A stretch of 64,000 nt of DNA from Escherichia phage Ec_Makalu_002. The stretch lies in the sequence record MN709127.1. The stretch is one strand, 5' to 3'. The position numbers and the translations under genes were made by a program. The notes beneath the pieces were generated by a model. The model was not told where the DNA came from, made no database searches, and saw only the letters and a list, made by a program, of their open reading frames with translations. Shown piece after piece: positions 3,176 through 57,893 of this stretch; position 1 is the first letter of the stretch; the number at the start of each line of letters is the position of its first letter.

Positions 3176-4693
3176 GTGAGGCTATTCGCTATGCAAGATA
3201 TTAAAATTCACTTTCTGAACTACTCCCACGTTCAAATTGAATGTAGCGATTCAATTTTATTAGAAATGCGAGATTATTTTAGTTTTGAAGTCGAGGGAGC
3301 GCGGTTTCAAAAAAGATTTAAGTATGGCGGATGGGATGGGCGTATTCGTCTTTTAGATTACAATGGAAAGTTGCCAATCGGACTAACTAAAACCGTTGGT
3401 ATCTTCGCTAAAAATATGGGTTATTCTGTTTGGGTAGACCCTCGCTTATTCGAGAAAGAACAGGTTACAGAAGAAGAGATCACAAAATGGTGTAACGACT
3501 TAGAATTATATTCCGGTGCTAACAGGATCACCCCGCATTGGTATCAATCAAAGGCTGTCTTTGAAGGTATTCATCATAAACGCCGTATGTTAGTTTTGCC
3601 TACGTCCGCTGGTAAATCTGCGATTGCTTGTATGTTGTCTCGCTGGTACTTAGAGAACTACGAAGGGAAAGTGCTGATCATCGTTCCTACCACGTCTCTA
3701 GTGCTGCAAATGCGAGATGACTTTGTTGATTATCGCCAGTTTCCTTATGAAGCAATTCATACTATCATGAGCGGTACTAGTAAACACGTAGGTGATCGCC
3801 TGATCGTTGTTAGTACGTGGCAATCTGCATGTAAACAACCTCGTGAGTGGTTCCAACAATTCGGGATGGTTATTGTTGACGAATGTCACAAGGCCACGGC
3901 TAAAAACCTGCTAAACATCGTTACTGATATGGATCATTGCCAATTTAAGATCGGTATGACTGGTTCCCCTCGTGACGGGAAAGCTAACATGATGCAGTAT
4001 GTCGGGCTTTTCGGTGATATTTCTAAGATCGTGAGTATTGACCGCCTGATGGAAGAAGGTCAAGTGACAAAACTGAAAATTAACTGTCTTTTTCTTCGTT
4101 ATACCGATGAGGAATGTAGCGCGGTTAAGGGGAGAGAATATGCGGAAGAGATCAAGTATATTACATCTAACCCACGACGTAATAAGTTTGCTTGCAATTT
4201 GGCGCTAAAACTCGCTAAGAAGGGCGAAAACGTATTCCTGATGTTCCGCAACACTAAGCACGGAAAACTTATGTATGATGCGTTACAGAAGGTACATGAC
4301 AAGGTTTATTATATTGACGGTGGAGTTAAGACAGAAGAACGTGATGAATTTAAGAAAATGGCGGAAGGTGACACCGGGATCATTTGTGTTGCGTCTTATG
4401 GTGTGTTCTCTACTGGTGTTTCCATCAAGAACTTGCATCATGTTATTTTCGGTCATCCAGTGAAGGAATCAACCATCGTTCGTCAGAGTATCGGTCGTGC
4501 ATTGCGTAAACATGGTTCTAAGGATATTGCTACCGTTTGGGATCTTATCGATCATTTGGCGGTGAAGACAAAGAGCAAGAATGCTAAGAAACAGTTTAGT
4601 CACCTTAATTATGCTCTTAAACACGCGCTTTTGAGGATACAGCTTTACAATACCGATAAATTTGAGTATGCCACGAAAACCATCGAGATTTAA
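3176..4693 (+). CDS. uvsW: UvsW DNA/RNA helicase (SF2)
   Basis: Aligns with remembered T4 UvsW from MQDIKIHF; Walker A LPTSAGKS, DECH box; track start 3176 is GTG, ATG at 3191 more likely. Confidence 0.9.
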   Translation: MRLFAMQDIKIHFLNYSHVQIECSDSILLEMRDYFSFEVEGARFQKRFKYGGWDGRIRLLDYNGKLPIGLTKTVGIFAKNMGYSVWVDPRLFEKEQVTEEEITKWCNDLELYSGANRITPHWYQSKAVFEGIHHKRRMLVLPTSAGKSAIACMLSRWYLENYEGKVLIIVPTTSLVLQMRDDFVDYRQFPYEAIHTIMSGTSKHVGDRLIVVSTWQSACKQPREWFQQFGMVIVDECHKATAKNLLNIVTDMDHCQFKIGMTGSPRDGKANMMQYVGLFGDISKIVSIDRLMEEGQVTKLKINCLFLRYTDEECSAVKGREYAEEIKYITSNPRRNKFACNLALKLAKKGENVFLMFRNTKHGKLMYDALQKVHDKVYYIDGGVKTEERDEFKKMAEGDTGIICVASYGVFSTGVSIKNLHHVIFGHPVKESTIVRQSIGRALRKHGSKDIATVWDLIDHLAVKTKSKNAKKQFSHLNYALKHALLRIQLYNTDKFEYATKTIEI

Positions 4694-12919: not shown

Positions 12920-13398
12920 GCTAAATCATTGCAATATTTTAGTGCCTTAGTTTGAAACTCTGCGCTGTTAAGTTCTTCATAACGGTCATAATCACCGTTT
13001 AATGCTGCCTTTCTTGCTTCTTGTTCTATCTGCATGTCAGACATGATAATACAACGATCCCGCGCTTTCATCTTCTCAAGTTGTATAGACTCTTCTTGTT
13101 GCTTGCGCAATTCTTCTTGATGCTTCTTTTCTTCTCGTGCTTTCTCTTCCCGCGCTTCTTTGATTGCATCTTTGAACATCTGCGTTTGTGGTGCTAAACC
13201 AACTTTAACGCGATCCACGTCTCGACGTTCCATTTTAGAAATAAAACATGATTCGATCTGGTCATCGCTTGCATATGCTGCTTTACATTCACGAAGCAAG
13301 AAAACCGGATCTGATTTAGCATTCATCATAGCTTCCATGTTAGTACAACCAGTAAGCATGAATGCAGCCGCAAGACCAATCAGTTTAATCATTTTCAT
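12913..13398 (-). CDS. predicted lipoprotein (signal peptide, lipobox LTGC), coiled-coil rich
   Basis: MKMIKLIGLAAAFMLTGC N-terminus; Lys/Glu-rich middle. Confidence 0.55.
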   Translation of the reverse strand: MKMIKLIGLAAAFMLTGCTNMEAMMNAKSDPVFLLRECKAAYASDDQIESCFISKMERRDVDRVKVGLAPQTQMFKDAIKEAREEKAREEKKHQEELRKQQEESIQLEKMKARDRCIIMSDMQIEQEARKAALNGDYDRYEELNSAEFQTKALKYCNDLAK

Positions 13399-14219
13399 TT
13401 AGTCACCTCACCGAAAATTGTAAATTGTCTACGATTCTCATCGCCGAAAGATTCTACTACGTCGTTTACCTTGATGCAAGTCCCGCGCGGTAAAATTACT
13501 TCACATTCGCAAGGATTCCATGCAATAGACCCAACAACAAAACCTTTATGATCTTTTACGTCAATTACCCATGATACATTACAAGAATGTTGCATCTTTC
13601 CGGTCATTGATTCATATCGATTCTCACAATAAAGGCTAGTGCTGTTTGAAAGCCATCCTCCAAAGATGATCGGTGTCATGCTGGTCGATACAAAGTTTTT
13701 AAAGGTAAATTCCTTATCTTCAATAATACGCTCTATTGTCTGAATGTCAAGATGTTGACCGCGATAAAGAGTACCGTTTAACTTTTCGGTTTTATCCATG
13801 ACACAATCCATCAAATCGACAATCTCTGATATCTCATCGGTCATGTCTTCTTCCCCTAAGAGAGCACCATTTACCCATTCGTATTGTTCAGACACATAAT
13901 CGCAGATTGCATTATATTCTGCTGGGGTTATGTTGTTATGTTTGTAATGTTTGAATACATTATCTCCAAAATCTTCGGAATGTACTTCATACATCACATT
14001 AATGATTTTCTTGACAAATCCATAATCTTGCGTTTCTTGCTCAAGGAAACGGATAACTTTCACGTAATCATCAAAGTTAATATGATCGCTGATCATTTCA
14101 GTGATCATGTAACCATTAATCCCCTCAATGCCATATGTTTCGATGTAATTATCCATACGTTCCATCATTGATTCGCGTGATTCTTCGGAAAGGCGAAAAT
14201 CCTGTAATTTCTTGAACAT
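13395..14219 (-). CDS. ADP-ribosyltransferase, Alt-like paralog
   Basis: LYRG...FVSTS...ECEVILPRG (R-S-ExE motifs) parallel the ART region of adjacent Alt. Confidence 0.7.
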   Translation of the reverse strand: MFKKLQDFRLSEESRESMMERMDNYIETYGIEGINGYMITEMISDHINFDDYVKVIRFLEQETQDYGFVKKIINVMYEVHSEDFGDNVFKHYKHNNITPAEYNAICDYVSEQYEWVNGALLGEEDMTDEISEIVDLMDCVMDKTEKLNGTLYRGQHLDIQTIERIIEDKEFTFKNFVSTSMTPIIFGGWLSNSTSLYCENRYESMTGKMQHSCNVSWVIDVKDHKGFVVGSIAWNPCECEVILPRGTCIKVNDVVESFGDENRRQFTIFGEVTK

Positions 14220-16949: not shown

Positions 16950-17504
16950 TTAGTTATTTTTTAATTGCTCATCTTGCAATAATGCAATCACATGCTGGCG
17001 ATGTTCTTCCGATTGAGGAACACCGAAAAAGTTTGTTTTGTAGAAATACTCTAATCGGTCTTCTCGTGTGCTCTCTTCCATCATGATCGCGGGTAGTCCA
17101 AGATTTCGGAAACGTCGCTTTTCTGCTGGCGTAAAATCACTGTAATACAACATAGAATCATCATTACCAGCAATGCTAAACTCATCCTTCATAAAGGAGA
17201 ATATTGCGTTTAAACGCTGTTTACCGTCCACGATTTCGATCTCATAGCGAGAGCCATCATCAATCTTAGCCATTGCGATAGCACCAACCGGAAAATCATT
17301 AATCAGGTTTTCGATAAACATACGTTTGTTTTCGGTGTCCCATACCAAAGGACGCTGATAATCTGGGTTCATGTTGATATAGCCATCTTCTAACCACGCC
17401 TCATAAACAGAGATGACAAAGTTTTTAGTATTGGTATAGTAACGGCGTTTAGGCGTTAAACGGTTCATGTTATAGTCTCCTGAATGGATCATCACGTAAA
17501 TCAA
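16950..17504 (-). CDS. DUF262 / ParB-like nuclease-domain protein (GmrS N-terminal-like), short form
   Basis: PDYQRPLVWD and DGKQRLNAI motifs; track start is TTG, ATG at about 17468 with AGGAG RBS more likely (172 aa). Confidence 0.65.
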   Translation of the reverse strand: MIYVMIHSGDYNMNRLTPKRRYYTNTKNFVISVYEAWLEDGYINMNPDYQRPLVWDTENKRMFIENLINDFPVGAIAMAKIDDGSRYEIEIVDGKQRLNAIFSFMKDEFSIAGNDDSMLYYSDFTPAEKRRFRNLGLPAIMMEESTREDRLEYFYKTNFFGVPQSEEHRQHVIALLQDEQLKNN

Positions 17505-17802
17505 TATCTTTTAAGAACTCATCCCATGAATGGCGGATAATGTTCTTAATTCTCCAGATAAGCGCAGGGATTGAACGCTCTCCCATCTGGAAGTAAGGAT
17601 CATATGATCCATATGCCCAATATGCTACTACAATTCCACAATCGGCGCAATAATATTCTATTTCACTTGCTGGCGACCAAAGTCCATCAATATGATCACG
17701 GATCTTGCTTTCGATGTTATGGCTATGGCAATCAGGGCAACGGATGCAATGACCTTGTTTATCGTAATTTGACGTTAGCGAATACTTAAACAATCTCATC
17801 AT
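17470..17802 (-). CDS. zinc-ribbon protein (two CxxC pairs)
   Basis: CIRCPDC ... CADCG; ATGA-coupled to upstream gene. Confidence 0.5.
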   Translation of the reverse strand: MMRLFKYSLTSNYDKQGHCIRCPDCHSHNIESKIRDHIDGLWSPASEIEYYCADCGIVVAYWAYGSYDPYFQMGERSIPALIWRIKNIIRHSWDEFLKDIDLRDDPFRRL

Positions 17803-18515
17803 AGATCCTTATTGGCTTCAAATACTGCCTTTGCGAATCCTCGCGGGGTAAGTGACCTGATAGTCTTTGTTCTGGTTCCTTTCCCGCCTAGCTTAGAATG
17901 CTGTTTACTGTACCCTTTATTAATCTGCAACGGTTTCTTTTCTGGCATTATAAAGCCTTGTCCGGTCCATAAGCAAGTCTTTTTCGGGTACATATCACGG
18001 GCGGCAATATACTCAGGAAACGTAGGATGCTTATCATCTTCCGGCAAATAACCGCCATATTCCCACGGATGGAACATGTAATCAGGCTTACGCCACATGC
18101 TAGAGATAACGCTTACAGGATTCTCTATCATGTAGGGAACTCCTAGCCATTCACCCAAATAAGCGGTTATTTTAGCTGCCCTTACATCATGAACTTGAAT
18201 TAATGGTCCTTGTTCTCGTTTCTTTCGTTCAAAGTGCGCAGCGCCACTAACAGCTAAATTGGTGCATGGTGGGAATGCAAAGATAATATCCGGTTTCCCC
18301 CATTCAAGGTCCATTGCTCTTTCCAGCCAATTTAAATCAATCCATGTGTTTACATATGTAATGTTTGGATGTTCAAATCGGGTATTATATTTTTTGTATG
18401 TACCGTGGTCGCCATCGTCAGCATTAAAGCAGATCACCTTATGACCTGCTTTAGCCCATTCTAACCCCATTATCCCCGATCCGTCAAAGTTGCAGAATAT
18501 TAATTTTTGTTTCAT
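17799..18515 (-). CDS. C5-cytosine-methyltransferase-like protein (SAM-dependent MTase fold, no obvious target-recognition domain)
   Basis: Motif I-like FDGSGIMG, motif IV-like FPPC with catalytic Cys, motif VI-like IENP; 238 aa. Confidence 0.5.
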   Translation of the reverse strand: MKQKLIFCNFDGSGIMGLEWAKAGHKVICFNADDGDHGTYKKYNTRFEHPNITYVNTWIDLNWLERAMDLEWGKPDIIFAFPPCTNLAVSGAAHFERKKREQGPLIQVHDVRAAKITAYLGEWLGVPYMIENPVSVISSMWRKPDYMFHPWEYGGYLPEDDKHPTFPEYIAARDMYPKKTCLWTGQGFIMPEKKPLQINKGYSKQHSKLGGKGTRTKTIRSLTPRGFAKAVFEANKDL

Positions 18516-44841: not shown

Positions 44842-44849
44842 TATAAATA
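44842..44849 (+). promoter_or_regulatory. late promoter box TATAAATA upstream of gene 34
   Basis: Exact TATAAATA about 29 nt upstream of ATG 44878. Confidence 0.65.
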
Positions 44850-44877: not shown

Positions 44878-47800
44878 ATGGCAGATTTTTCTCAACATTT
44901 CAAGGCCACATTTGGCTTTGACGCTGGTAATGAAAAGGTCGTCAATGTAGCATTGGCTGATAAAAACACATCAACGGATGCGGTCAACGTTGAGTTTTTC
45001 AATTACCATAATGGTATTACTCAGTATGACACAACTCGCGGTTATGATCAATACGGAACTACAATCTATCAAAACCGTCCGTATTATGCAAAAGAAGATA
45101 TCACAAAGCCAGCAGGTGATTTTGACCCGACTAAATGGCAAGCACTGCGCACGGACCCACGTTGGGATTATATTGCAGCAACTTCCGGTGATACTCCTTT
45201 AAAGTCTGGTGATTATATCGCAGCAGATGGTCAATTTGCAAACTTGACTTTCTCTATGCCAACTAAACCAGCAGAGGGAGACACTATAACAGTAAAAGAT
45301 ATCGGTGGCAAGTGTGGTGTTAACGAATTATCGTTCTTGAGTTCAGGACATGAGTTTTACCATAACGGTAATGTGTATAACCGAAAATGGTATTGCACTA
45401 CCCCGTATGCAATGAACTATTTCATCTTTGTTCGTAATCGTTGGCATGTTTATCAGACAGGAACAGAGCCACGCGGTGTGTACGCACAGCCAGCGATTGA
45501 TGCTATTCAAATGCAGAATGGTGATCAGGTATTTCGTCGTAGTTCTTTGGGTAATATTACCTTAGTGCTTCCTAAGTTTGCCAACAATGGCGACATGATC
45601 CAGACTACAGACCTTGACGGATTAACCGTAACCAACCACGTTACGGTTAAAGTTCATGAGCACGCAGAAGAACAATCAATTGGCACGTCCGGTCTAAAAG
45701 AGATTATCGGTAAGCGTAGCGGTCATGGTGTATTCATCTTTGACAAGACGGAAAACTTATGGCGTTTGTGGGATGGTGATCAGTCTGTTCGTCTTAAACC
45801 GATCATCGATGACACTCGCTTGCAACCTAATAGCTATGTTGCCGTATTTGGTGATCGTGATGTTACTCTGACGCTGCCGACCAATGTCGAGCCGGGTGAT
45901 CGTATTCAAGTTTCTATGCAGTATATGCACGGAAACCAGAATTGCCGTATTATCACCGCCACAGAGGATACAAAAATCCTCATGTCGAAAAACATGGTTC
46001 AGTTTCCGAAGCGTAGCGAGTACCCATTCAACGGGACCGACACATGGAAGGAAGTGTCTGAATTGTCGTTCAATGCGGCTAGTGATTATGTACCTTATCT
46101 GGAGTTCTCTTATTCAGAAGGTGATGATGGTAAGAAACATTGGCTGGTAGCACACTCTCATCCGATCGTCGAACGAGTAGACCCTACTCGTAAAGATCGT
46201 GTTGGTGTCATTGCACTGGCTACCCAGACTGAAACGAATAAAAACCATGAAGAGAATCCTAGCGACGAAGTTGCCGTAACACCAAAAATGCTGGCTAATA
46301 AAACAGCCAACGAAACTCGACGCGGTATTGCTCGTATTGCTACTCAGGCGGAAACGCATCAAGATACTGGTTCCAGCTTCCTGGATGATGTTATCGTTAC
46401 ACCTAAAAAGTTAAATGACTGTGTTGCTACCGAAGCCCGTCGTGGTGTGATGGAAATTGCAACCCAGCACGAAACCAATGAAGGTTTAGACGATACACGC
46501 GCTATTACTCCTAAGAAATTAGAAGAACGTCGCGCTTCCGAAGACCTCGCTGGTATTGCTGAAATTGTTCAGGTAGGCGGTCGTGCTGCCGCTCGACGTG
46601 GTGAAGCTGGTACAGGGATCTATAACATCAATGACCATGCTAAAATTGTTACACCACAAAACATCAACGAGGTCAAGGCGACCGAAACTTCCCGTGGTGT
46701 TGGCTATCTGGCAACTGACGCGGAAGTGCAAGGGGCTACAGAATCAACACCGCAAGATGCTTTACTAATCACGACTCGCACGCTAACGAAACGTACTGCT
46801 ACCGAATCGCGCACTGGTATCGCTGAAATTGCAACTCAGGAAGAAACAAACTTAGGTCAAAGTGATAACCATATCATCACGCCTAAAAAGCTGCATACTC
46901 GCCGTGCGACGGAAACTCTACACGGTTTAGCAGAAATTGCAACTCAGCCGGAATTTGACGCAGGTCTTGACGATGCTCGCATTTCTACCCCATTGAAGAT
47001 TAAAACCTTCTTTGAGAATGCACAGCGTTTGAAAGTAGATCCGACTCAGGGGCTTAACCTTACTGGTGATTTGTGGCAAGGTATCATGATCAGCGGTCTG
47101 GACGCAACCGAAGACACAAAAGGTGTCGCTAAAGTTGCTACTACTCAGCTTACTGACGCTGGTCAAGATGATACTACAATCATCACGCCTAAAAAGCTGC
47201 AAGGCAAAAAGGCCACCGAAGGTAAAGAAGGTATTATCCGAGTTGGTACTCAAGCCGAAACCGTGGCTGGTACACTGGCTAATGTAGCAATTTCTCCGAA
47301 GAACTTCAAATATGTTGTTCAGACAGAGGATACATGGAAAGCAACCGAAGCTCGTCGTGGTTTCTTGAAAGTTGCTACTCAGGAAAACTGTTTTGTTGGT
47401 GACAATCTGCAAGGTTCTACTCAAGAACTAGGAAACTACCAGCATGACGGAATTGCTGTTACTCCGAAAGGATTAAACTACGCACTTGCTAATTTCTTGC
47501 CTAAGATGGCAACCGCTCAGAATAGTTTGAAATTGGGTAACGTAGAGGCCGCTAAATGGGCGCGTAGAGACATTGACCAGACCATAGAGAGCAATTACAC
47601 GTTTAATAAAAACGTTAACGTGAAGGGCGATTTAGAGTGCTTAAAATCAGGTTCCTTTGAAACTCTGTATGTGACTAAGAACTCTACTGATGATCCGAGT
47701 AATGGTCATCTGGTGTTGGGTGAGCGTGGAGTTGACGGTCACACCGGAATTACTCTGCATGGCACAACCGCATCGGAAGGCATGAAAAACTCCTGGTCTA

Positions 47801-48618
47801 TTATCGTTGGTGGTACTGGAACGGCGCAAGCAGTTAATAGTGGCGCTATCGCTTTCGGTCAAATCAATGATGGTGGAGTCGTCGAGCATTACGCCTTTGC
47901 TATGGAACACAATGGCGACGCGACAGCATATAGAGACTTTATTGCAGGTCGTAACCTGTATGCGAAACAAGGCGGTTTATACATTGTTGACCAGTCTAAT
48001 CCGGCAATGACTCGTTCCCCAGATGGTATGCTGAATATCGGTCACGGTGGAAGTGTTAACATCAAGGCAGGTTCTCAAACGTTAACTACAGAGATCGCCG
48101 GACAGAAATATCAGATCGTACACGCAGGAAACGCCGACGAAGTTCTTAACCGTCGGTTTGTTAAGAATGCTGGCGATACAATGGTCGGTAAGCTGACTAT
48201 GGATAATGCGCCTATTGTTTCTGTTAAACATGAAGCTAGCGCGGCAACCGCTCCGGCAATTGGTAACATCGGTTTCTGGAATATGCGAGTTACTACCCAG
48301 AACATCAAAGAAACTTATCCAGAGAAGAAAAACGGTACTCTGATGCAATGGGGTACTGACGCGGACGGGCTTACCCAGCTTTGGTCCCCTGATGGTACTC
48401 ATAAACATTATATCCGTTCCGGTACTGGTGGTCAATGGACCGCATGGGGTGAAATTTACACCAAACAGAATAAGCCTACCGCTCAGGAAATCGGGGCGGT
48501 AGTTGCAGAAGGTGGTTTAATGAACTCTATGACGGTTCGTGATTGGATTAAAGTTGGTAATGTTAAAATCATCGCCAATAATCTGACTCGTACCGTAGAC
48601 TTTATCTGGGAAGACTAA
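44878..48618 (+). CDS. 34: long tail fibre proximal subunit gp34
   Basis: 1246 aa; repetitive ITPKKL segments; synteny rnh-34-35-36-37. Confidence 0.9.
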   Translation: MADFSQHFKATFGFDAGNEKVVNVALADKNTSTDAVNVEFFNYHNGITQYDTTRGYDQYGTTIYQNRPYYAKEDITKPAGDFDPTKWQALRTDPRWDYIAATSGDTPLKSGDYIAADGQFANLTFSMPTKPAEGDTITVKDIGGKCGVNELSFLSSGHEFYHNGNVYNRKWYCTTPYAMNYFIFVRNRWHVYQTGTEPRGVYAQPAIDAIQMQNGDQVFRRSSLGNITLVLPKFANNGDMIQTTDLDGLTVTNHVTVKVHEHAEEQSIGTSGLKEIIGKRSGHGVFIFDKTENLWRLWDGDQSVRLKPIIDDTRLQPNSYVAVFGDRDVTLTLPTNVEPGDRIQVSMQYMHGNQNCRIITATEDTKILMSKNMVQFPKRSEYPFNGTDTWKEVSELSFNAASDYVPYLEFSYSEGDDGKKHWLVAHSHPIVERVDPTRKDRVGVIALATQTETNKNHEENPSDEVAVTPKMLANKTANETRRGIARIATQAETHQDTGSSFLDDVIVTPKKLNDCVATEARRGVMEIATQHETNEGLDDTRAITPKKLEERRASEDLAGIAEIVQVGGRAAARRGEAGTGIYNINDHAKIVTPQNINEVKATETSRGVGYLATDAEVQGATESTPQDALLITTRTLTKRTATESRTGIAEIATQEETNLGQSDNHIITPKKLHTRRATETLHGLAEIATQPEFDAGLDDARISTPLKIKTFFENAQRLKVDPTQGLNLTGDLWQGIMISGLDATEDTKGVAKVATTQLTDAGQDDTTIITPKKLQGKKATEGKEGIIRVGTQAETVAGTLANVAISPKNFKYVVQTEDTWKATEARRGFLKVATQENCFVGDNLQGSTQELGNYQHDGIAVTPKGLNYALANFLPKMATAQNSLKLGNVEAAKWARRDIDQTIESNYTFNKNVNVKGDLECLKSGSFETLYVTKNSTDDPSNGHLVLGERGVDGHTGITLHGTTASEGMKNSWSIIVGGTGTAQAVNSGAIAFGQINDGGVVEHYAFAMEHNGDATAYRDFIAGRNLYAKQGGLYIVDQSNPAMTRSPDGMLNIGHGGSVNIKAGSQTLTTEIAGQKYQIVHAGNADEVLNRRFVKNAGDTMVGKLTMDNAPIVSVKHEASAATAPAIGNIGFWNMRVTTQNIKETYPEKKNGTLMQWGTDADGLTQLWSPDGTHKHYIRSGTGGQWTAWGEIYTKQNKPTAQEIGAVVAEGGLMNSMTVRDWIKVGNVKIIANNLTRTVDFIWED

Positions 48619-48651: not shown

Positions 48652-49791
48652 ATGACACAAGATATAGAATTACGCAACACTGGAATTAGGTTTGCGCATT
48701 TCGATGAGGACTCCGCGACATTTACCAGCATTTCAGAAAACAACTCTGTGATGTATAAGCTGGAAGTGCGCGGATCTAATGCGGATTCTACCAAACCAGC
48801 AAGGATTAGATTTAATGGAGTGGAGATCGTTGGCACTGGCTATGAAAATGGCCTAAATTTTAAAGTTCTTACTCCAACTGGACAACTACACGAAGAAAAG
48901 GTATTCTATGGTCGCGGTGCTGTTTTGGCAATGCGTGATTATCTTTCTTTGCTGAAAGGCGACTATATCATTGCGATGGCAACGCATGGAGAATTGTTCG
49001 CAGATCCGATAAGTGATGTTGTATTTTCTAAGATGGGATCTGTATCATTCCCGAATCACATTTTGTTACAGCAAATGCCTCGTGTATCATATGCAGCAAT
49101 TTATTCTACTAAAATGGGTAAAATTGTTTGTGAGGGTATGCAAGCGACCCACGGGGAAGGACAAGATTCGTCTATACAAATTGAGAAGGTTTATGATACT
49201 ATAGATGATCTTGCGATCACAGGAACACCGCAGAGATTTTTAGATTATCCGGTTGAGTATGTTAGCGAAGATGCCGAACATTTCGAGCTAATACAATGGC
49301 CTCACGATGAGATCAGCGCCCCACTTGAGGATTTTAACATAAAGGCAGGTGACAAACTATCAATATCCTTTGAATTGTTCCGTGATAGTGCCGCAGCCGC
49401 AGCCAACGTAACAGCGCGTTTCTATCACAACTACTTCACCGATGGACAATATAAAACTGGTGTTCGATACAATGCCAGCAAAAAAGATCAATGGGAAAAG
49501 TTTGAAGCCGTCTATACCGTACCGGAAGGAGTTGATAGTGTAGTAACTGGTTGTATCAGATATCCAACCAACTCAAATGAAGGTATTGTTAAAATTAGAA
49601 ACATACTAATAACGCCGATCAGTGGAGTCGTCAAAACTACTGGTCCTACTTCATTTGGTGTTAATGGTGTTAGAACAACTCATATTCAGGATAACGGTGA
49701 TTTTACTAACCCTGTAATGAGTCTTCTTAAGCTGCCTAGAGACAATAAACATATCACATCCAACAACTTTAAAGAGTTCGATGTTGATTAA
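48652..49791 (+). CDS. 35: long tail fibre hinge protein gp35
   Basis: 379 aa; synteny and size. Confidence 0.8.
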   Translation: MTQDIELRNTGIRFAHFDEDSATFTSISENNSVMYKLEVRGSNADSTKPARIRFNGVEIVGTGYENGLNFKVLTPTGQLHEEKVFYGRGAVLAMRDYLSLLKGDYIIAMATHGELFADPISDVVFSKMGSVSFPNHILLQQMPRVSYAAIYSTKMGKIVCEGMQATHGEGQDSSIQIEKVYDTIDDLAITGTPQRFLDYPVEYVSEDAEHFELIQWPHDEISAPLEDFNIKAGDKLSISFELFRDSAAAAANVTARFYHNYFTDGQYKTGVRYNASKKDQWEKFEAVYTVPEGVDSVVTGCIRYPTNSNEGIVKIRNILITPISGVVKTTGPTSFGVNGVRTTHIQDNGDFTNPVMSLLKLPRDNKHITSNNFKEFDVD

Positions 49792-49952: not shown

Positions 49953-49960
49953 TATAAATA
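49953..49960 (+). promoter_or_regulatory. late promoter box TATAAATA upstream of gene 36
   Basis: Exact TATAAATA about 34 nt upstream of ATG 49994. Confidence 0.65.
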
Positions 49961-49993: not shown

Positions 49994-51484
49994 ATGGCAG
50001 ATTTGAAATATGGATCTACTGTAGGTGGATCTCCCATTTGGACGCAAGGAAACTTGACGATCCAGCCAGCGGGGGACCAGCTTTTCTACAAAGGTCATAA
50101 AATATATACCGCTTTTGATAGACCTTCGGCTACCGATTTTGATGCTGTTAGTGCATCCGAAGGTGGCACATTTCAAAAGCAAGTTCATTTCGAGGAAGGT
50201 TTAAGCGTAGGTAGCGCATCGGCTGGAGAAACCAAAAAGAATGGTATCTTTAAAGGTCAGAGTGACGCTGCTAATTTTGACGGTGTAAGCTGGGGTTTTC
50301 ATTCATGGAAGTCAATCGGCTTTGTTAATGCCCGTGATGGCGTTATCATGGCTTATATTGACACCACAACGGGCGAATTTAAGTCTAAAGGGACTATCGA
50401 AGGGACAACCATTAAAGACACAGGTCAACGCGTCTATAGCCCTGTTAATAAACCAACGAATAATGATTTAGATTTGGTGTCTCGTCGCGGTGATACCCTC
50501 ACAGGAACATATAATTTAAACACTGTCACTGTTAAACTATCGGTTGATTCGAAATTAATTGCAAGGGAACGTGATTTAATTAATTTTGATGCGACTAAGA
50601 TCTATTATGGTAACGTTCTTGATACGTTGGTATTCCGAAGTAAAGATGAGCCTACCATTTTTGTTAATGGCAAAGAAGGTCGTTTTTATCACACCAACAA
50701 TAAACCAACTAAAGCCGATGTGGGACTAGGCAATGTCACCAATGATGCACAGGTTAAACGTGCTGGTGATATTATGGAAGGTAACTTGCAAGCGCCTAGA
50801 ATGTTGGCGACAAACGATCCTGGTGGTCCGAATGAATTGGTTCGTTTGAGCTACTTTGAGAGAAAATCAATGGTAGCAAATCCAACCATCATAGGAAACG
50901 TTGATTGGAACACTCTTATTAATCGCGGTATCTATCGTGTGGAAAATGCGGGATCAGGTACTAATAAACCGTCTGATAGCTATTATAACGGCGTTTTGAT
51001 GGTATACCGCCCAGAAGATGCGGTCGGTACTCGTCGAATTGTTCAGGTGTATTATCCTGAATCTATTGACCATCCGATGTGCTGGCGTTCTTGTTCTAAT
51101 GAATCATGGACTGCATGGAACTATGTAGATCACCGTAAATTAGCCGATATTCGCTATGTTAACGTAACTGGCGATACCATGACAGGACCGTTAACTGTTC
51201 CGGCTGCAAACGGTGTTAGAACGGCTAGAGGTGCATATAATGGTGATAACTATTATGCCGGGTTAAATAGTGCTGATGGTACTGCTATGATTCACCGCAT
51301 TAGTGATATTAAAGGGACCGAAAAGCTGGGGATCACCCACGACTCAAAGGTCGTGTTTTTCCGTTCTAGAAACAATACTCAAACCGTGGATCGCTATCAG
51401 CTTTATCATGAAGGTAATAAACCTACTCCGGCTGATGTTGGTGCGGTTCCACTTAATGCGGTGATTGATTTTGGTACTTTCTAA
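49994..51484 (+). CDS. 36: long tail fibre distal connector gp36 (expanded, 496 aa)
   Basis: N-terminus MADLKYGSTVGGSPIWTQGN matches T4 gp36; about twice the T4 length. Confidence 0.8.
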   Translation: MADLKYGSTVGGSPIWTQGNLTIQPAGDQLFYKGHKIYTAFDRPSATDFDAVSASEGGTFQKQVHFEEGLSVGSASAGETKKNGIFKGQSDAANFDGVSWGFHSWKSIGFVNARDGVIMAYIDTTTGEFKSKGTIEGTTIKDTGQRVYSPVNKPTNNDLDLVSRRGDTLTGTYNLNTVTVKLSVDSKLIARERDLINFDATKIYYGNVLDTLVFRSKDEPTIFVNGKEGRFYHTNNKPTKADVGLGNVTNDAQVKRAGDIMEGNLQAPRMLATNDPGGPNELVRLSYFERKSMVANPTIIGNVDWNTLINRGIYRVENAGSGTNKPSDSYYNGVLMVYRPEDAVGTRRIVQVYYPESIDHPMCWRSCSNESWTAWNYVDHRKLADIRYVNVTGDTMTGPLTVPAANGVRTARGAYNGDNYYAGLNSADGTAMIHRISDIKGTEKLGITHDSKVVFFRSRNNTQTVDRYQLYHEGNKPTPADVGAVPLNAVIDFGTF

Positions 51485-51554: not shown

Positions 51555-54323
51555 ATGGCAGATTTAAGCAGAATCCAATTTAAACGTACTAGCACTAAAG
51601 GCCGTCGACCTGATGCTGGTACGATGAATCCGGGGGAATTGGCAATCAACCTTGCGGATCAATATCTTCTTACTAAAAATGATTCCGGCGCTATTATCAA
51701 TTTAAGTTGTCCTCCGGTTTATGACCGTGATGTTACAATGGCGGGTAAGGTTAAAGGAAATAATTATATTTTAAGTAAAACCGCCAATTATCTGGAAGAC
51801 CAGACAGCGAGAGATCTTAACTACTTTGGTGCTTTCCGTACCAATAGTCTAGATGGACTCATGGATCTAACCCTTAACGTTCCTCACTCTTCCGGTAAAG
51901 CGCATGGTCGAGGATTTACTTTCCGTTATGGGACTGGCGGATCTCGTGTTGAAACCTATGGTTTTGATGTTCAGGGACAAAAAGCATTTAGTTATAAAAT
52001 GTATCATGAAGGGGATAAACCGACTCCCTCAGAATTGAACGTTTATAGCAAACAAGAAGTTGACCGTATGTTTGTTAAAACCGTTAAACTTGCTACAGTT
52101 CCTGTTGATATCGTTGACGGTTATTTTAAATTAGCAACTGCATTGATTCCGCAAAACGGTCGTAGTGTATTTTTCCGTATTCATGGTGGTAACGGATATA
52201 ACGTTACTGCATACGATCAAGTTGATATTGTAGAAATTGTTATTCGCAGTGGAAATAATCGTCCTAAAGGTGTTAACGTTATTGCATACCGCCGAAATAC
52301 AAACAAAGCATTTGATGTTTTGGCTGTTAATACTTCTGGTGATAACTATGATATCTACGTGAAATATCAGCGTTACACTGATAACGTTATTGTTGAATTT
52401 GGTAAAAGTGTTGATGTTGATCTGGTAGTCCATGACGTTCCAGACTTTGTTGTTGATCGTCCTGTTGGCGATAATGTTATTGGCGGTCGCGCGGTAACTC
52501 TTTTTAACACCGAAAACAAACGAGGTGTGTTGAGTTTTGACGATAACACACAAAATAGTTATGATATTGTTCACTTGAGTAATGATAAAGGTACTGGACG
52601 GAAATATATTCGTAAATTCCGTAGTAACTATAATGAAATGATCTGGCATGAGACTGTTCAAGGTTCTACTTATCGACTCGCCACGGGTAGTACAGATGCT
52701 CAGGAAATTATAACTATTGAATCTAGTAGCTCAATTGCTGGAACTCATAAAGGTAATATTATTTCTGGTCGTATGCTGTTAAATGGCGGATCTAATGCCA
52801 TTACACTACGCCGACCTGCTGGTCAATCTAATCATATTGCGTTTCAAGATAATCGTACTGGAGATATTACCCGTCAAGGTTGGCTGGGCTACGCAAACGC
52901 CGATACTGACGTTTTTGAATGGTATAGTGATGTAGGTGGCAGTTCTATTCGTCAACATATCGACGGACAGATCGAATTTCAGACAGGTAACATGAAGCGA
53001 GTCTATACCAACGGTCAATTCATTTCTTTATATGCTGATGGCTTCCGTACTGTATATGGTAACTATGGTTCATGGTGGCGAAATGACGGCAGCAACGTTT
53101 ATCTGATGAGCACAAAATCAGGCGACACTATGGGTCCGTGGAATACCTTTAGGCCGTTCATCTATAGCCTAGCCAATGGAAACGTTACACTAGGTGGTAG
53201 CGACGCTGGCAACCATTTAATGCGTCTCAACAATGAAAATCGTCAAGTAGAAATAAATGCAACAACACATTTAGGGTCTCGATTATATTGGGAAGGTAGC
53301 GAAGGTTCTGCATCTAGATTTTTTATTAAGAATTGGGGTGATGGAACTTCTCGCGCTCAGGTGTGGGAACTTGCAGACGAAACAAGCTATCATCTATATT
53401 CTCAGCGTGATTCTAACGGTTCGATTCAATTCCGAGTTGCTGGTAGTTTAGAAACGGGTGGTCGTGCTCAGATAAATGGTGATTTGGTGGTTACTAATGT
53501 TTTGCGTACCAATAACCAAATTCAGATTTATCGCGATAACAACAAAGAAATCTGGTTTAAGGATGCTGATGGTACTAACCGTGGTGTTATCTGGGGTGGC
53601 GCTGACGGTAAAATGAGACTGCGCAATTATTCTAGCGGAGAGTATGACCATGTGTTTGAAGCTGGTATGATTCGCCTTGAGCGTGGTTATGCTAATGGAC
53701 AAGGTGCTGGCTTGATTCGTGGTGAGGTTCAAGGTGGAGCGTGGTCCGACTGGAGAACTCGTGCTGCTGGTTTATTAGTTGACTGCCCTAATGCTCAAAC
53801 TTCCGCATATAACGTATGGAAAGCGACCAAATGGGGATTAGACCACATCGCGGCAATGGGCGTTCATATTCCTAGCGGTGTTGTTGGTAACTCTATTGCG
53901 CGTTTGCATGTTGGTGGCACTAACTTTGATTTTAGCGCTACTGGTGACTTTACCGCAGGTCGTAACGGTTCGTTTAACGATGTGTACATTCGTTCTGATG
54001 CTCGCCTGAAAATCAATAAGGAAGAGTATAAAGAGAATGCCACCGATAAAGTTAATCGCTTGACTGTGTACACCTACGATAAGGTTAAGTCTTTGACGGA
54101 CCGCACTGTTATCGCTCATGAAGTTGGTATTATTGCTCAGGATCTTGAGAAAGAATTGCCGGAAGCAGTAACAACTTCTAAGGTCGGCGATCCTGATAAG
54201 CCAGAAGAGATCTTAACAATTTCTAACTCTGCTGTCAACGCTCTTTTAATTAAGGCGTTTCAGGAAATGAGCGAAGAATTGAAAGCCGTTAAAGCTGAAC
54301 TAGCGGAACTTAAAAAGAATTAA
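51555..54323 (+). CDS. 37: long tail fibre distal subunit gp37 with C-terminal intramolecular chaperone-like domain
   Basis: N-terminus matches T4 gp37; C-terminus SDARLKINKEE...IIAQDLEKELPEAV...coiled coil resembles S74-type auto-cleaving chaperone. Confidence 0.85.
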   Translation: MADLSRIQFKRTSTKGRRPDAGTMNPGELAINLADQYLLTKNDSGAIINLSCPPVYDRDVTMAGKVKGNNYILSKTANYLEDQTARDLNYFGAFRTNSLDGLMDLTLNVPHSSGKAHGRGFTFRYGTGGSRVETYGFDVQGQKAFSYKMYHEGDKPTPSELNVYSKQEVDRMFVKTVKLATVPVDIVDGYFKLATALIPQNGRSVFFRIHGGNGYNVTAYDQVDIVEIVIRSGNNRPKGVNVIAYRRNTNKAFDVLAVNTSGDNYDIYVKYQRYTDNVIVEFGKSVDVDLVVHDVPDFVVDRPVGDNVIGGRAVTLFNTENKRGVLSFDDNTQNSYDIVHLSNDKGTGRKYIRKFRSNYNEMIWHETVQGSTYRLATGSTDAQEIITIESSSSIAGTHKGNIISGRMLLNGGSNAITLRRPAGQSNHIAFQDNRTGDITRQGWLGYANADTDVFEWYSDVGGSSIRQHIDGQIEFQTGNMKRVYTNGQFISLYADGFRTVYGNYGSWWRNDGSNVYLMSTKSGDTMGPWNTFRPFIYSLANGNVTLGGSDAGNHLMRLNNENRQVEINATTHLGSRLYWEGSEGSASRFFIKNWGDGTSRAQVWELADETSYHLYSQRDSNGSIQFRVAGSLETGGRAQINGDLVVTNVLRTNNQIQIYRDNNKEIWFKDADGTNRGVIWGGADGKMRLRNYSSGEYDHVFEAGMIRLERGYANGQGAGLIRGEVQGGAWSDWRTRAAGLLVDCPNAQTSAYNVWKATKWGLDHIAAMGVHIPSGVVGNSIARLHVGGTNFDFSATGDFTAGRNGSFNDVYIRSDARLKINKEEYKENATDKVNRLTVYTYDKVKSLTDRTVIAHEVGIIAQDLEKELPEAVTTSKVGDPDKPEEILTISNSAVNALLIKAFQEMSEELKAVKAELAELKKN

Positions 54324-54363
54324 GGAAACTCCCAGGGAAGGGAACTACTAAGGAGAAACGGCT

Positions 54364-54603
54364 ATGGTCTATAATATCGTCATTGGTGCTTTGTCTAATT
54401 TCGGAATGAAATTATTGTCAAAGTTAATTAGTGAAAAGATGCTCACTAAAATTTTCTTCTATTGCGCTCGTCGTCTTGCGGCTTATACCAATACGCCAAT
54501 TGATGATCGTTTTGTGGAAGAACTTTATAAGGAGTTTAATAAAGATCAGTCAGAAGATAGTAACGAGCAAGATAAACCTAGTGATAGTCAACTACCTAAA
54601 TAA
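54364..54603 (+). CDS. hypothetical small protein (79 aa) in the gene 38 position
   Basis: ORF track; hydrophobic N-terminus, acidic C-terminus. Confidence 0.4.
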   Translation: MVYNIVIGALSNFGMKLLSKLISEKMLTKIFFYCARRLAAYTNTPIDDRFVEELYKEFNKDQSEDSNEQDKPSDSQLPK

Positions 54604-54636: not shown

Positions 54637-55293
54637 ATGCAAGTTTCTGAAAAAGGGAAAGACTTTGCTATCTCAAATGTCCTGCGCGCTATTTTCACAA
54701 CTAAAAGCACGGAGTTGCTCGTACTTCGTGTTTTTGCTGCCGTCGTGTTGTCCATATTAGCATTTGTCGTTTATAGTAAAAACGAGTTATTCGCGCTTTA
54801 TAAAGAGACTCGTTATGAGACTTATGCTCACATTCTCCAGGTAGAGAAAGACCGCAATTTTGATAATGCAGCACAGGAGCAGTTACAGATAGTTCATGTA
54901 TCGGCTGATGCCGATTTTTCTGCTGTTTTTAGTTTTCGTCCGAAAAACCTAAACTATTTTGTTGATTTGGTGGCATATGAAGGAAAGCTACCGCATACAA
55001 TCGATGAAAAAAATTTAGGCGGATTCCCTATCAATAAAACGAGTGAAGAATATCGTAGGCATCTTTTAGGTAAATCATATTTTACCGATAAAGATTTCCA
55101 GTATATTCCATCAAGAGAAAAGAAATTAGAGAATATCGATATAGGTTTCATGTATTCTTGTCCTATATTCAATCTCGATAATGTCTATTCTGGTAGTATC
55201 GCCATTTCATGGAAGAATAAACCGGATATTGACATTGAGAATTTAGATACTCTTTGCAATCAATCTGCCAGAATCCTCGGAAGGATTAGATAA
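54637..55293 (+). CDS. t: holin
   Basis: 218 aa; one N-terminal TM; EQLQIVH.SADADFSAVFSFRPKNLNYFVDLVAYEGKLP nearly identical to T4 T. Confidence 0.9.
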   Translation: MQVSEKGKDFAISNVLRAIFTTKSTELLVLRVFAAVVLSILAFVVYSKNELFALYKETRYETYAHILQVEKDRNFDNAAQEQLQIVHVSADADFSAVFSFRPKNLNYFVDLVAYEGKLPHTIDEKNLGGFPINKTSEEYRRHLLGKSYFTDKDFQYIPSREKKLENIDIGFMYSCPIFNLDNVYSGSIAISWKNKPDIDIENLDTLCNQSARILGRIR

Positions 55294-57134: not shown

Positions 57135-57893
57135 TTACTTGCAAACGTATTGATCTACATCAATTGCGCCACCGAATGTAGGATGACGTTTTTCAAATCG
57201 AATAGTTCCGTCGTTTGGTTCGAAAACGGAGTATTCATATAGATCTTTCTTGCCAACATTCTTATAAAACCCGCCTTTAGTCATAACGGTTTCTTGTACG
57301 TTTGCTTTGTGTACATTGTATTCATCAATGTACACAAAATCAACCATCTTCCCATTTTTAATAGTTACTTTAAGATCCCCTGGCTGGTTTCCATATTTTG
57401 CATACAGTGGAGATTCTTTAATTTTGGTGGAAATTCCATCTTTCATACTCCACTCATAACGAACGGTGCATTGATAGGTAAAAGTTTCGACCTTCGGTTC
57501 TTCCACCACTTTTGCTTCCTGTTTCGGTTGTTCTTCTTCAACCTTCGCAGAAGTCTCTGAATCGCTTTCTGACGCGGTTTCTTCTTTAGGTAATACATTC
57601 ATCAAGTTTTGGATTTGAGCGTTATATACAGCCTCCAGTGGCTGAATCTGCCCGATATTGATCATTGTATCACGAACAGTTTTATTCCAGTTGCGTTGCT
57701 CTTGTTTCAGAGACGGATCAATCTTAACAGCCTTAACATATACTTCATGAAGTTTAGAATCAAGTGCGGAGATTGACTCGTTAGCACAAATAAACTTCTC
57801 TGATTTGGTAGTAGCCTTAGTGCAATCAAAGGACGCAGCATTAGCACCGATGGCAGTAGCAGAAAGAAAGATAGCAGCGATAATGTTTTTCAT
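57135..57893 (-). CDS. secreted protein with LprI/DUF1311-like N-terminal domain and Cys-bracketed C-terminal domain
   Basis: Signal peptide MKNIIAAIFLSATAIGANA; CANESISALDSKLHEVY...QRNW pattern; C-terminal domain bounded by Cys. Confidence 0.5.
   Translation of the reverse strand: MKNIIAAIFLSATAIGANAASFDCTKATTKSEKFICANESISALDSKLHEVYVKAVKIDPSLKQEQRNWNKTVRDTMINIGQIQPLEAVYNAQIQNLMNVLPKEETASESDSETSAKVEEEQPKQEAKVVEEPKVETFTYQCTVRYEWSMKDGISTKIKESPLYAKYGNQPGDLKVTIKNGKMVDFVYIDEYNVHKANVQETVMTKGGFYKNVGKKDLYEYSVFEPNDGTIRFEKRHPTFGGAIDVDQYVCK

Follow-up and report, generated by a model that had tools for sequence, protein, structure and literature searches.

In the fibre of the Krischvirus RB49, the distal subunit gp37 carries a self-cleaving chaperone and subsequently binds gp38 (Efimov 2022, PMC9569957), and it is to gp38 that the host-range mutations E230K/Y231S have been mapped (PMC9569957). 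Gene 38 of RB49 is displaced from its usual position, which is occupied by a small ORF (Trojet 2011, PMC3157838). Both the gp37 chaperone and the displaced gp38 are therefore already known, the displacement and the host-range role having been published for RB49. In S16 and T2-like phages the intramolecular chaperone and gp38 are always found together, the S16 structure (as described in PMC7917993) shows the gp37 tip capped by gp38, and the cleavage sites are DLNVS^SDRRIKK in S16 and DVYIR^SDGRLKI in T2-like phages (PMC7917993). Since S74 cleavage exposes the gp38 docking tip in these phages, the domain is expected to accompany gp38 and not to replace it. A receptor-screen study pairs RB49 with OmpA in an AlphaFold3 receptor-adhesin model (bioRxiv 10.64898/2026.04.02.716166), and the paper on the completed BASEL collection contains nothing specific on Krischvirus fibres.

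The window, that is, the whole 64-kb stretch of DNA from Escherichia phage Ec_Makalu_002 analysed here, derives from a Krischvirus (RB49-like T-even coliphage) and shows 98.3% identity with phage Ec_Makalu_003 across 25 kb. Its fibre genes follow the order 34-35-36-37-79-aa ORF-t, with gp34, gp35 and gp36 encoded upstream of gp37 (Table 1), and gene 37 shares 92–95% nucleotide identity with gene 37 of JEP8, GEC-3S, Makalu_003 and Phi1. Taking the evidence below together, we consider it highly probable that this gp37 is an ordinary Krischvirus distal fibre precursor with a self-cleaving chaperone, served by a displaced gp38 adhesin. The late promoter consensus TATAAATA has five exact matches in the window, a count not above chance, and those near fibre genes on the + strand are at 49953 and at 44842 (upstream of gene 34); an exact-match search found none between 37, the 79-aa ORF and t. 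Judged by position only, a 36-37-ORF79-t late transcript likely starts at the promoter upstream of gene 36.

Table 1. Features of the distal fibre and adjoining lysis genes (window coordinates)
Feature	Position	Strand	Evidence and remarks
T4-type late promoter consensus TATAAATA, upstream of gene 36	49953..49960	+	Exact match
gp36, long-tail-fibre hinge/distal connector, 496 aa	49994..51484	+	phrog_16472 full length, phrog_1425, weak Phage_T4_gp36 match; RB49 gene 36 in same position
gp37, distal long-tail-fibre subunit precursor, 922 aa	51555..54323	+	phrog_1699 E 2.9e-177
Gp34_trimer-like trimerisation domain, gp37 shaft aa 443-537	52881..53165	+	PF21446 E 2.1e-23
Mosaic distal shaft and tip of mature gp37, aa 486-813	53010..53993	+	Protein alignment with JEP8, Makalu_003 and RB49 gp37
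Predicted autoproteolytic site Arg813 / Ser814	53991..53996	+	Partner Lys819 codon 54009-54011
Intramolecular chaperone / Peptidase_S74, gp37 aa 814-922	53994..54320	+	PF13884; coiled-coil helix aa ~891-921 at end
79-aa ORF, RB49ORF251w/Dc5 homolog	54364..54603	+	phrog_402 E 5e-20; strong Shine-Dalgarno AAGGAG
t holin, 218 aa	54637..55293	+	PF11031 Phage_holin_T E 4.5e-61; phrog_860 E 5e-88

The trimerisation domain in the gp37 shaft matches the T4 gp34 structures 4UXE and 5NXF and the Mu fibre 5YVQ in sequence, and full-length gp37, compared with the PDB by phmmer, matched only the shafts of gp34 and the Mu fibre. With the query cut down to the C-terminal 282 aa, the best sequence match was 6F45_A, the gp37 component of the S16 gp37-gp38 complex. 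Residues 701-813 are 45–56% identical to the gp37 tips of T-even-type phages. In RB32, the relative of this type that was checked, gene 38 adjoins gene 37 (37-38-t), and the tip and chaperone together (C-terminal 223 aa) share 63% identity with RB32 gp37 aa 801-1013 over 217 aa. Lower identity (33–40%) was observed between residues ~711-813 and tail-fibre tips annotated in T5-like siphoviruses. A Pfam scan of the window gp37 gave no match to the gp37_C and needle-domain models of the T4-type tip, neither PF12604 nor PF20744, both of which were detected in a Felix O1-like fibre with the same profile library. The last ~100 residues of mature gp37, immediately before Arg813, are predicted to form the docking tip for gp38, and the predicted monomer model has pLDDT below 50 for aa 700-754.

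Protein alignment further revealed gp37 to be a mosaic, with aa 1-485 of the Makalu_003 type and aa 486-813 of the JEP8 type. For the latter region two markedly divergent alleles exist, which are swapped among otherwise near-identical Krischviruses, and the JEP8-type distal allele, joined here to a Makalu-type proximal part, lacks the 57-residue extra length found in RB49/Makalu. The protein accordingly has 922 aa here versus 979 aa in RB49, with an overall identity of only 65%. Such allele exchange, together with the homology of the tip to T5-like fibre tips, would be consistent with dual recognition, in which gp38 binds an outer-membrane protein while gp37 aa 486-813 adds a receptor or O-antigen contact, and the gp37 allele would then matter for host range too. 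The authors of PMC9569957 also call it counter-intuitive that a small gp38 alone should recognise several O antigens. However, the selected RB49 host-range mutants changed only in gp38 (PMC9569957) and gp38 caps the gp37 tip in the S16 structure (PMC7917993), and we regard dual recognition as unlikely.

No gene 38 (PF05268 + PF21721) lies directly downstream of 37, where only the 79-aa ORF separates 37 from t, in agreement with what a sequence-only reading of this locus had noted. A tblastn search with RB49 gp38 against the whole 64-kb window likewise gave no match (best E 0.17). A 238-aa ORF at 17799-18515, considered as gp38 on account of its size, was rejected as it has only a weak DNA-methylase-like match, as was RB49ORF143w (between genes 8 and 9), which is a methyltransferase. 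Homologs are present elsewhere in the genomes of relatives: RB49 encodes gp38 at 45367-46143, some 105 kb away from gene 37 (Pfam GP38 E 7e-72, Gp38_N E 6e-18), Makalu_003 gp38 is annotated at a displaced locus (45280-46059), and tblastn recovered a displaced gp38 also in JEP8, GEC-3S, ELT4, JK32, Phi1, JSE and others. Of the top 25 gene-37 matches, 24 have gp38, as do most of the 58 Krischvirus records, judged by the gp38 matches listed, in which about 11 of the 58 do not figure. Six other Krischviruses (FL04, MIZ4/5, KMB43, FL15, LF73P4) have the usual 37-38-ORF-t arrangement. As gp38 occurs in all close relatives listed, including the 98.3% identical Makalu_003, the Ec_Makalu_002 genome probably encodes it as well, outside the 64-kb window.

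The sequence-only reading had gone further and proposed a fibre that folds without a gp38-type chaperone or adhesin and has its receptor-binding tip in gp37 itself. This is not supported: in the tblastn results all closest relatives, Makalu_003 included, carry gp38, and the RB49 host-range mutations are located in gp38 (PMC9569957). An unrecognised gp38 homolog elsewhere was among the things that the reading had itself listed as counting against it. Either a loss of gp38 in Ec_Makalu_002 or a receptor or O-antigen contact made by gp37 aa 486-813 itself would put host range partly or wholly under the control of gp37, as that reading had it; we judge this pair of possibilities improbable. In its strongest form the proposal is a self-sufficient fibre like T5 pb1, folded by its chaperone in a genome without gp38 and binding the receptor with the gp37 tip. 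T5 itself carries an S74 chaperone, as reportedly described by Garcia-Doval et al. (2015), and is not known to encode gp38, and the self-sufficient arrangement would be compatible with the absence of gene 38 from the 64-kb window, with the genome beyond it unseen, and with the tip similarity to T5-like siphovirus fibres. It is nevertheless very unlikely, firstly because one gp38 is present in each of the close relatives listed, with a displaced copy in Makalu_003, secondly because the tip is much closer (45–63% identity) to gp38-bearing phages, and thirdly because experiments place the host specificity of the RB49 group in gp38 (PMC9569957).

The displaced-gp38 reading is consistent with the C-terminal end of gp37, where the profile search bore out the auto-chaperone-like domain suggested from the sequence (PF13884, E 9.4e-12, 45.5 bits versus a cutoff of 22), and the predicted fold agrees. 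This Peptidase_S74 match is far beyond chance, with aa 814-873 covering profile positions 1-58 of 58, and the chaperone domain as a whole comprises the last 109 of the 922 gp37 residues, opening with SDARLKINKEE at residue 814. In the AlphaFold model of aa 700-922 the chaperone part has pLDDT values of 84–95 and ends in a long helix (aa 891-921). A Foldseek search of the PDB, with the predicted monomer model and not a trimer as query, returned 7DC3 (E 1e-4, probability 1.00), 3GW6 (E 1.1e-2, 0.94) and 3GUD (E 1.6e-2, 1.00) as top matches, and sequence identity to these solved chaperones is 12–23%. The Ser814/Lys819 dyad lies in NDVYIR|SDARLKI, where Ser opens the domain and Lys follows at a distance of five residues (S-D-x-R-x-K). 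This motif can be aligned with S^SDRRIKK of S16, and the full stretch agrees with both the S16 and the T2-like sites. We predict from this motif that the chaperone is released after trimerisation by a cut at Arg813|Ser814. The S, D, L and K of SDARLK are invariant in 31 homologs, and all but three of the 109 domain residues are identical among four aligned Krischvirus gp37 proteins (including JEP8, Makalu_003 and RB49). The near-invariance of dyad and domain beside a mosaic shaft, and their conservation in the 31 homologs, point to selection for function and, although cleavage is here a prediction from sequence, make it least likely of all that the S74 domain is an uncleaved relic borne by full-length gp37 in the virion.

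The 79-aa ORF and its RB49 homolog share 97.5% identity. The ORF is found directly upstream of t in the window and in all Krischviruses seen, and in those with gene 38 in its usual place it is retained between that gene and t. Fifteen homologs (61–98% identical) carry a precomputed match to PF26925 (Phage_PM2_Gpl); that model was not among the matches that the local Pfam copy gave for the window ORF itself. Aligned with PM2 gp l, the window protein is colinear at 22% identity, a pairwise similarity that is not significant; the two proteins share small size, the motif order ..LL..SE......A..LA..T.T..DD.. and a lysis-cassette location, and differ in an extra acidic tail in the window protein. 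In PM2, the gene for gp l follows that for gp k and closes the gene order, and homologs of the 79-aa ORF are encoded upstream of an annotated holin in Suspvirus mistaenkt (Felix O1-like) and directly after a GH108 endolysin in Vibrio phage 1.036.O. No clear membrane span was evident in the ORF (maximum Kyte-Doolittle 19-residue mean 1.31). A role as substitute fibre chaperone or adhesin was rejected because the ORF persists beside gene 38 and has homologs in lysis cassettes of unrelated phages. On homology and gene context it is probably a small lysis-cassette gene travelling with t, and not a fibre gene, and is provisionally assigned to the PM2 gp l (lysis factor P18) family.

Based on these features, we posit that three gp37 chains would trimerise with the help of the C-terminal chaperone (aa 814-922), after which the Ser814/Lys819 dyad would cut the chain at Arg813|Ser814 and so release the chaperone of 109 residues. 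Cleavage is expected to uncover the hydrophobic tip at the distal end of mature gp37 (aa 1-813), on which one gp38 could dock via its Trp-bearing N-terminal domain, the receptor-binding loops being carried by gp38. Gene 38 itself would lie outside the window, as expected for the Krischvirus lineage, where some 105 kb separate it from gene 37.

Current understanding of the fibre is unchanged by this analysis, which shows how a missing gene 38 beside 37 in RB49-like phages is to be read, namely as gene relocation and not as loss. For annotation and host-range work, the lesson is that an S74 chaperone ending a T-even gp37 accompanies a gp38 adhesin. Receptor-prediction pipelines that search only downstream of 37 would name the wrong receptor-binding protein in this genus.

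Among known fibre systems, T4 gp37 occupies the same fibre position and has homologous N-terminal parts. Its tip is, however, a needle and T4 gp38 serves as an assembly chaperone only, whereas the window gp37 gives no gp37_C needle match. T4 gp37 is not known to carry an S74 domain, and T4 gp38 and the T2-type adhesin are unrelated proteins. Both points are also made in the introduction of PMC9569957. The T5 L-shaped fibre pb1 ends in an S74 chaperone, as here, and T5-like fibres bind the receptor directly with no gp38, whereas the Krischvirus lineage has gp38. The chaperones of the K1F endosialidase and GA-1 neck appendage (3GW6, 3GUD; MEROPS S74) and the MyRF ICA (7DC3) belong to the same Pfam family with the same predicted fold and, like gp37, have a Ser-Lys dyad at the domain start, although the chaperoned part is a tailspike or appendage in K1F and GA-1 and a T-even distal fibre here. 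Closer are S16 gp37-gp38 (PDB 6F45; Dunne 2018) and the T2/T6-like Tequatrovirus fibres (RB32), which share the C-terminal S74 chaperone and cleavage motif. The tips that precede the cleavage site are likewise homologous in S16, RB32 and the Krischvirus lineage, all of which have a gp38 adhesin belonging to PF05268/PF21721, with the difference that the S16 and RB32-type phages carry gene 38 directly between 37 and t, whereas here that slot is without 38, which in relatives is about 105 kb away. The closest counterpart is the RB49/Krischvirus fibre (Desplats 2002; PMC3157838; PMC9569957), which belongs to the same genus and has the same gene order and a near-invariant chaperone.

On its + strand the window carries a long-tail-fibre operon of the usual T-even type, as delineated by ORF and profile searches, together with a 79-aa ORF. 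Its gene 37-to-t stretch shares 92–95% nucleotide identity with Krischvirus (RB49-like) coliphages; the closest record for the last 25 kb is Ec_Makalu_003 (98.3% identity), and, in the deposited RB49 record, the approximate counterpart of the window is the final 64 kb.

Features of the fibre region, other window genes and comparison loci (window positions unless a record is named)
Feature	Position	Strand	Remark
gp34	44878-48618	+	
gp35	48652-49791	+	
Late-promoter consensus	49953		upstream of gene 36
gp36	49994-51484	+	
gp37	51555-54323	+	922 aa
79-aa ORF	54364-54603	+	between gene 37 and t
t holin	54637-55293	+	
Alt-like ADP-ribosyltransferase	13395-14219	-	274 aa; adjoins alt
GmrSD_N protein	16950-17504	-	184 aa; domain E 5e-20
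LprI (lysozyme inhibitor) protein	57135-57893	-	252 aa; domain E 1e-5
Gene 38 of FL04 (L015)	3753-4535		canonical position
Extra ORF of KFS-EC (L016)	4071-4394		107 aa
Gp10_C protein of metagenomic relative L011	1722-3296		524 aa; gene 37 position

The C-terminal domain of gp37, which a sequence-only reading had described as auto-chaperone-like, is confirmed by sequence and structural modelling as an S74-type auto-chaperone with predicted self-cleavage. The profile search suggested in that reading was positive: the whole Pfam Peptidase_S74 profile matches aa 814-873 (E 9.4e-12, 45.5 bits; cutoff 22 bits), with Ser814 as the first residue of the domain, at the start of SDARLKI in NDVYIR-SDARLKI, and Lys819 five residues later. 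Published gp37 cleavage sites are DLNVS^SDRRIKK in S16 and DVYIR^SDGRLKI in T2-like Yersinia phages (PMC7917993), and an alignment of 31 homologs shows S, D, L and K of SDARLKI to be invariant. When aa 700-922 were modelled with AlphaFold on that alignment, the model gave pLDDT 84-95 for the chaperone part and a long helix at its end; as its top PDB matches, Foldseek identified the MyRF ICA domain (7DC3) and two phage intramolecular chaperones, 3GUD and 3GW6. The 109 chaperone residues differ at only three positions across four Krischvirus gp37 sequences, and the shaft directly before the domain is mosaic. In the window, gp37 aa 1-813 (51555-53993) is a recombinant mosaic, near-identical to Makalu_003 over aa 1-485 and carrying the JEP8 allele over aa 486-813; the distal allele of RB49 and Makalu_003 is very different and 57 residues longer.

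No gp38, the T2/S16-type adhesin, is encoded between gene 37 and t, as the same reading had noted, and none was found anywhere in the 64-kb window (tblastn with RB49 gp38, best E 0.17). Its further proposal, that the phage lacks a gp38 adhesin and bears its receptor-binding tip in gp37, is unsupported, since relatives carry a displaced gp38 and the host-range mutations E230K and Y231S map to gp38 (Efimov et al. 2022, PMC9569957); the reading as a whole was half right, the S74 chaperone being real. That gene 38 is missing beside gene 37 reflects a peculiarity already known for this lineage, not a loss, and the combination of gp37 chaperone and displaced gp38 has already been described for RB49 and relatives (Trojet et al., PMC3157838, for the displaced g38; Efimov et al. 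2022 for the self-cleaving chaperone on gp37 and attachment of a gp38 monomer once it is removed). The RB49 annotation places gene 38 at 45367-46143 on the opposite strand, ~105 kb from gene 37, and the protein it encodes has Pfam hits to GP38 (E 7e-72) and Gp38_N (E 6e-18). Of the 25 best matches to gene 37, 24 have an RB49-type gp38 gene by tblastn, among them JEP8, GEC-3S, ELT4, JK32, Makalu_001/003, Phi1 and JSE; that of Makalu_003 is annotated as a 'receptor-recognizing protein' (45280-46059, near rI). Given that gene 38 is missing from the canonical slot of the window and that Makalu_003 is its nearest record, we infer from these relatives that gene 38 of this phage would lie at the displaced locus.

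Six Krischvirus records (FL04, LF73P4, MIZ4, MIZ5, KMB43 and FL15) show the canonical placement of gene 38, in the order 37-38-small ORF-t, and tblastn revealed a single gp38 locus in each, with no second copy; the sequences therefore indicate that the gp38 locus is polymorphic within the genus. The Krischviruses among the matches listed, which cover all but about 11 of 58 records, each have exactly one gp38, at either the canonical or the displaced locus. The canonical-slot gp38 is 95.8% identical to that of Tequatroviruses (fPS-65, IP008), and the polymorphism probably stems from module exchange with this group. The metagenomic relative L014 likewise has the order 37-38-small ORF-t. In KFS-EC-type Krischviruses an extra ORF that matches no Pfam family separates gene 37 from the small ORF; gp37 there has a divergent distal tip and retains the S74 domain, and the displaced gp38 is kept. 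In L011 the small ORF and t come straight after the short Gp10_C protein, which has no S74 match on record, and gene 38 is not adjacent. An E. coli record encodes a 303-aa chimera (P0019) joining the N-terminal ~160 residues of gp38 (Gp38_N + GP38) to a gp37 S74 chaperone, a probable artefact of assembly or permutation involving the neighbouring genes 37 and 38.

The 79-aa ORF is no stand-in for gp38, as genomes with gene 38 in the canonical slot still have this ORF between 38 and t. It is preceded by a strong Shine-Dalgarno sequence, belongs to phrog_402 and shows no clear transmembrane segment; fifteen homologs (61-98% identity) have a precomputed Pfam hit to PF26925 'Phage_PM2_Gpl', which probably places the ORF in the family of PM2 gp l. 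Phages unrelated to this one carry homologs in a lysis setting: in the Felix O1-like phage mistaenkt after the tail fibre gene and directly upstream of an annotated holin, and in Vibrio phage 1.036.O immediately behind a GH108 endolysin. In PM2, gp l, which aligns colinearly with the 79-aa ORF, is the last gene, after gp k. Krupovic et al. (2007) reportedly assigned PM2 P18 to gene l. P18 is needed for outer-membrane disruption (PMC9502842). Gene context and homology suggest that the 79-aa ORF most likely serves as an accessory lysis gene and shares a transcript with t. RB49 annotates pseT.2 and pseT.3, the spanin genes in T4, with window counterparts at ~28.4-29.1 kb. The LprI protein is a homolog of RB49ORF260c; by eye, its N-terminus seems hydrophobic and resembles a signal peptide.

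We posit that 36-37-ORF79-t would be transcribed late from the consensus upstream of gene 36, with no second consensus found downstream in this stretch. As in other family members, the chaperone domain would guide gp37 trimerisation, after which Ser814 and Lys819 could effect autoproteolysis between R813 and S814. Tip homology, relatives and the literature suggest that one gp38, encoded far off, would then dock on the exposed tip and bind the receptor, reported for RB49-group phages as OmpA and certain O antigens. The S74 domain works together with gp38 and does not replace it: in S16 the surface on which gp38 docks is laid bare once the last 113 residues have been released (PMC7917993). For the C-terminal 282 aa of the window gp37, the best PDB match by sequence is S16 gp37, as a fragment in the gp37-gp38 complex (6F45_A), and RB32, with gene order 37-38-t, has a gp37 63% identical to the last 223 aa, which together tie the window gp37 to the S16/RB32-type fibre.
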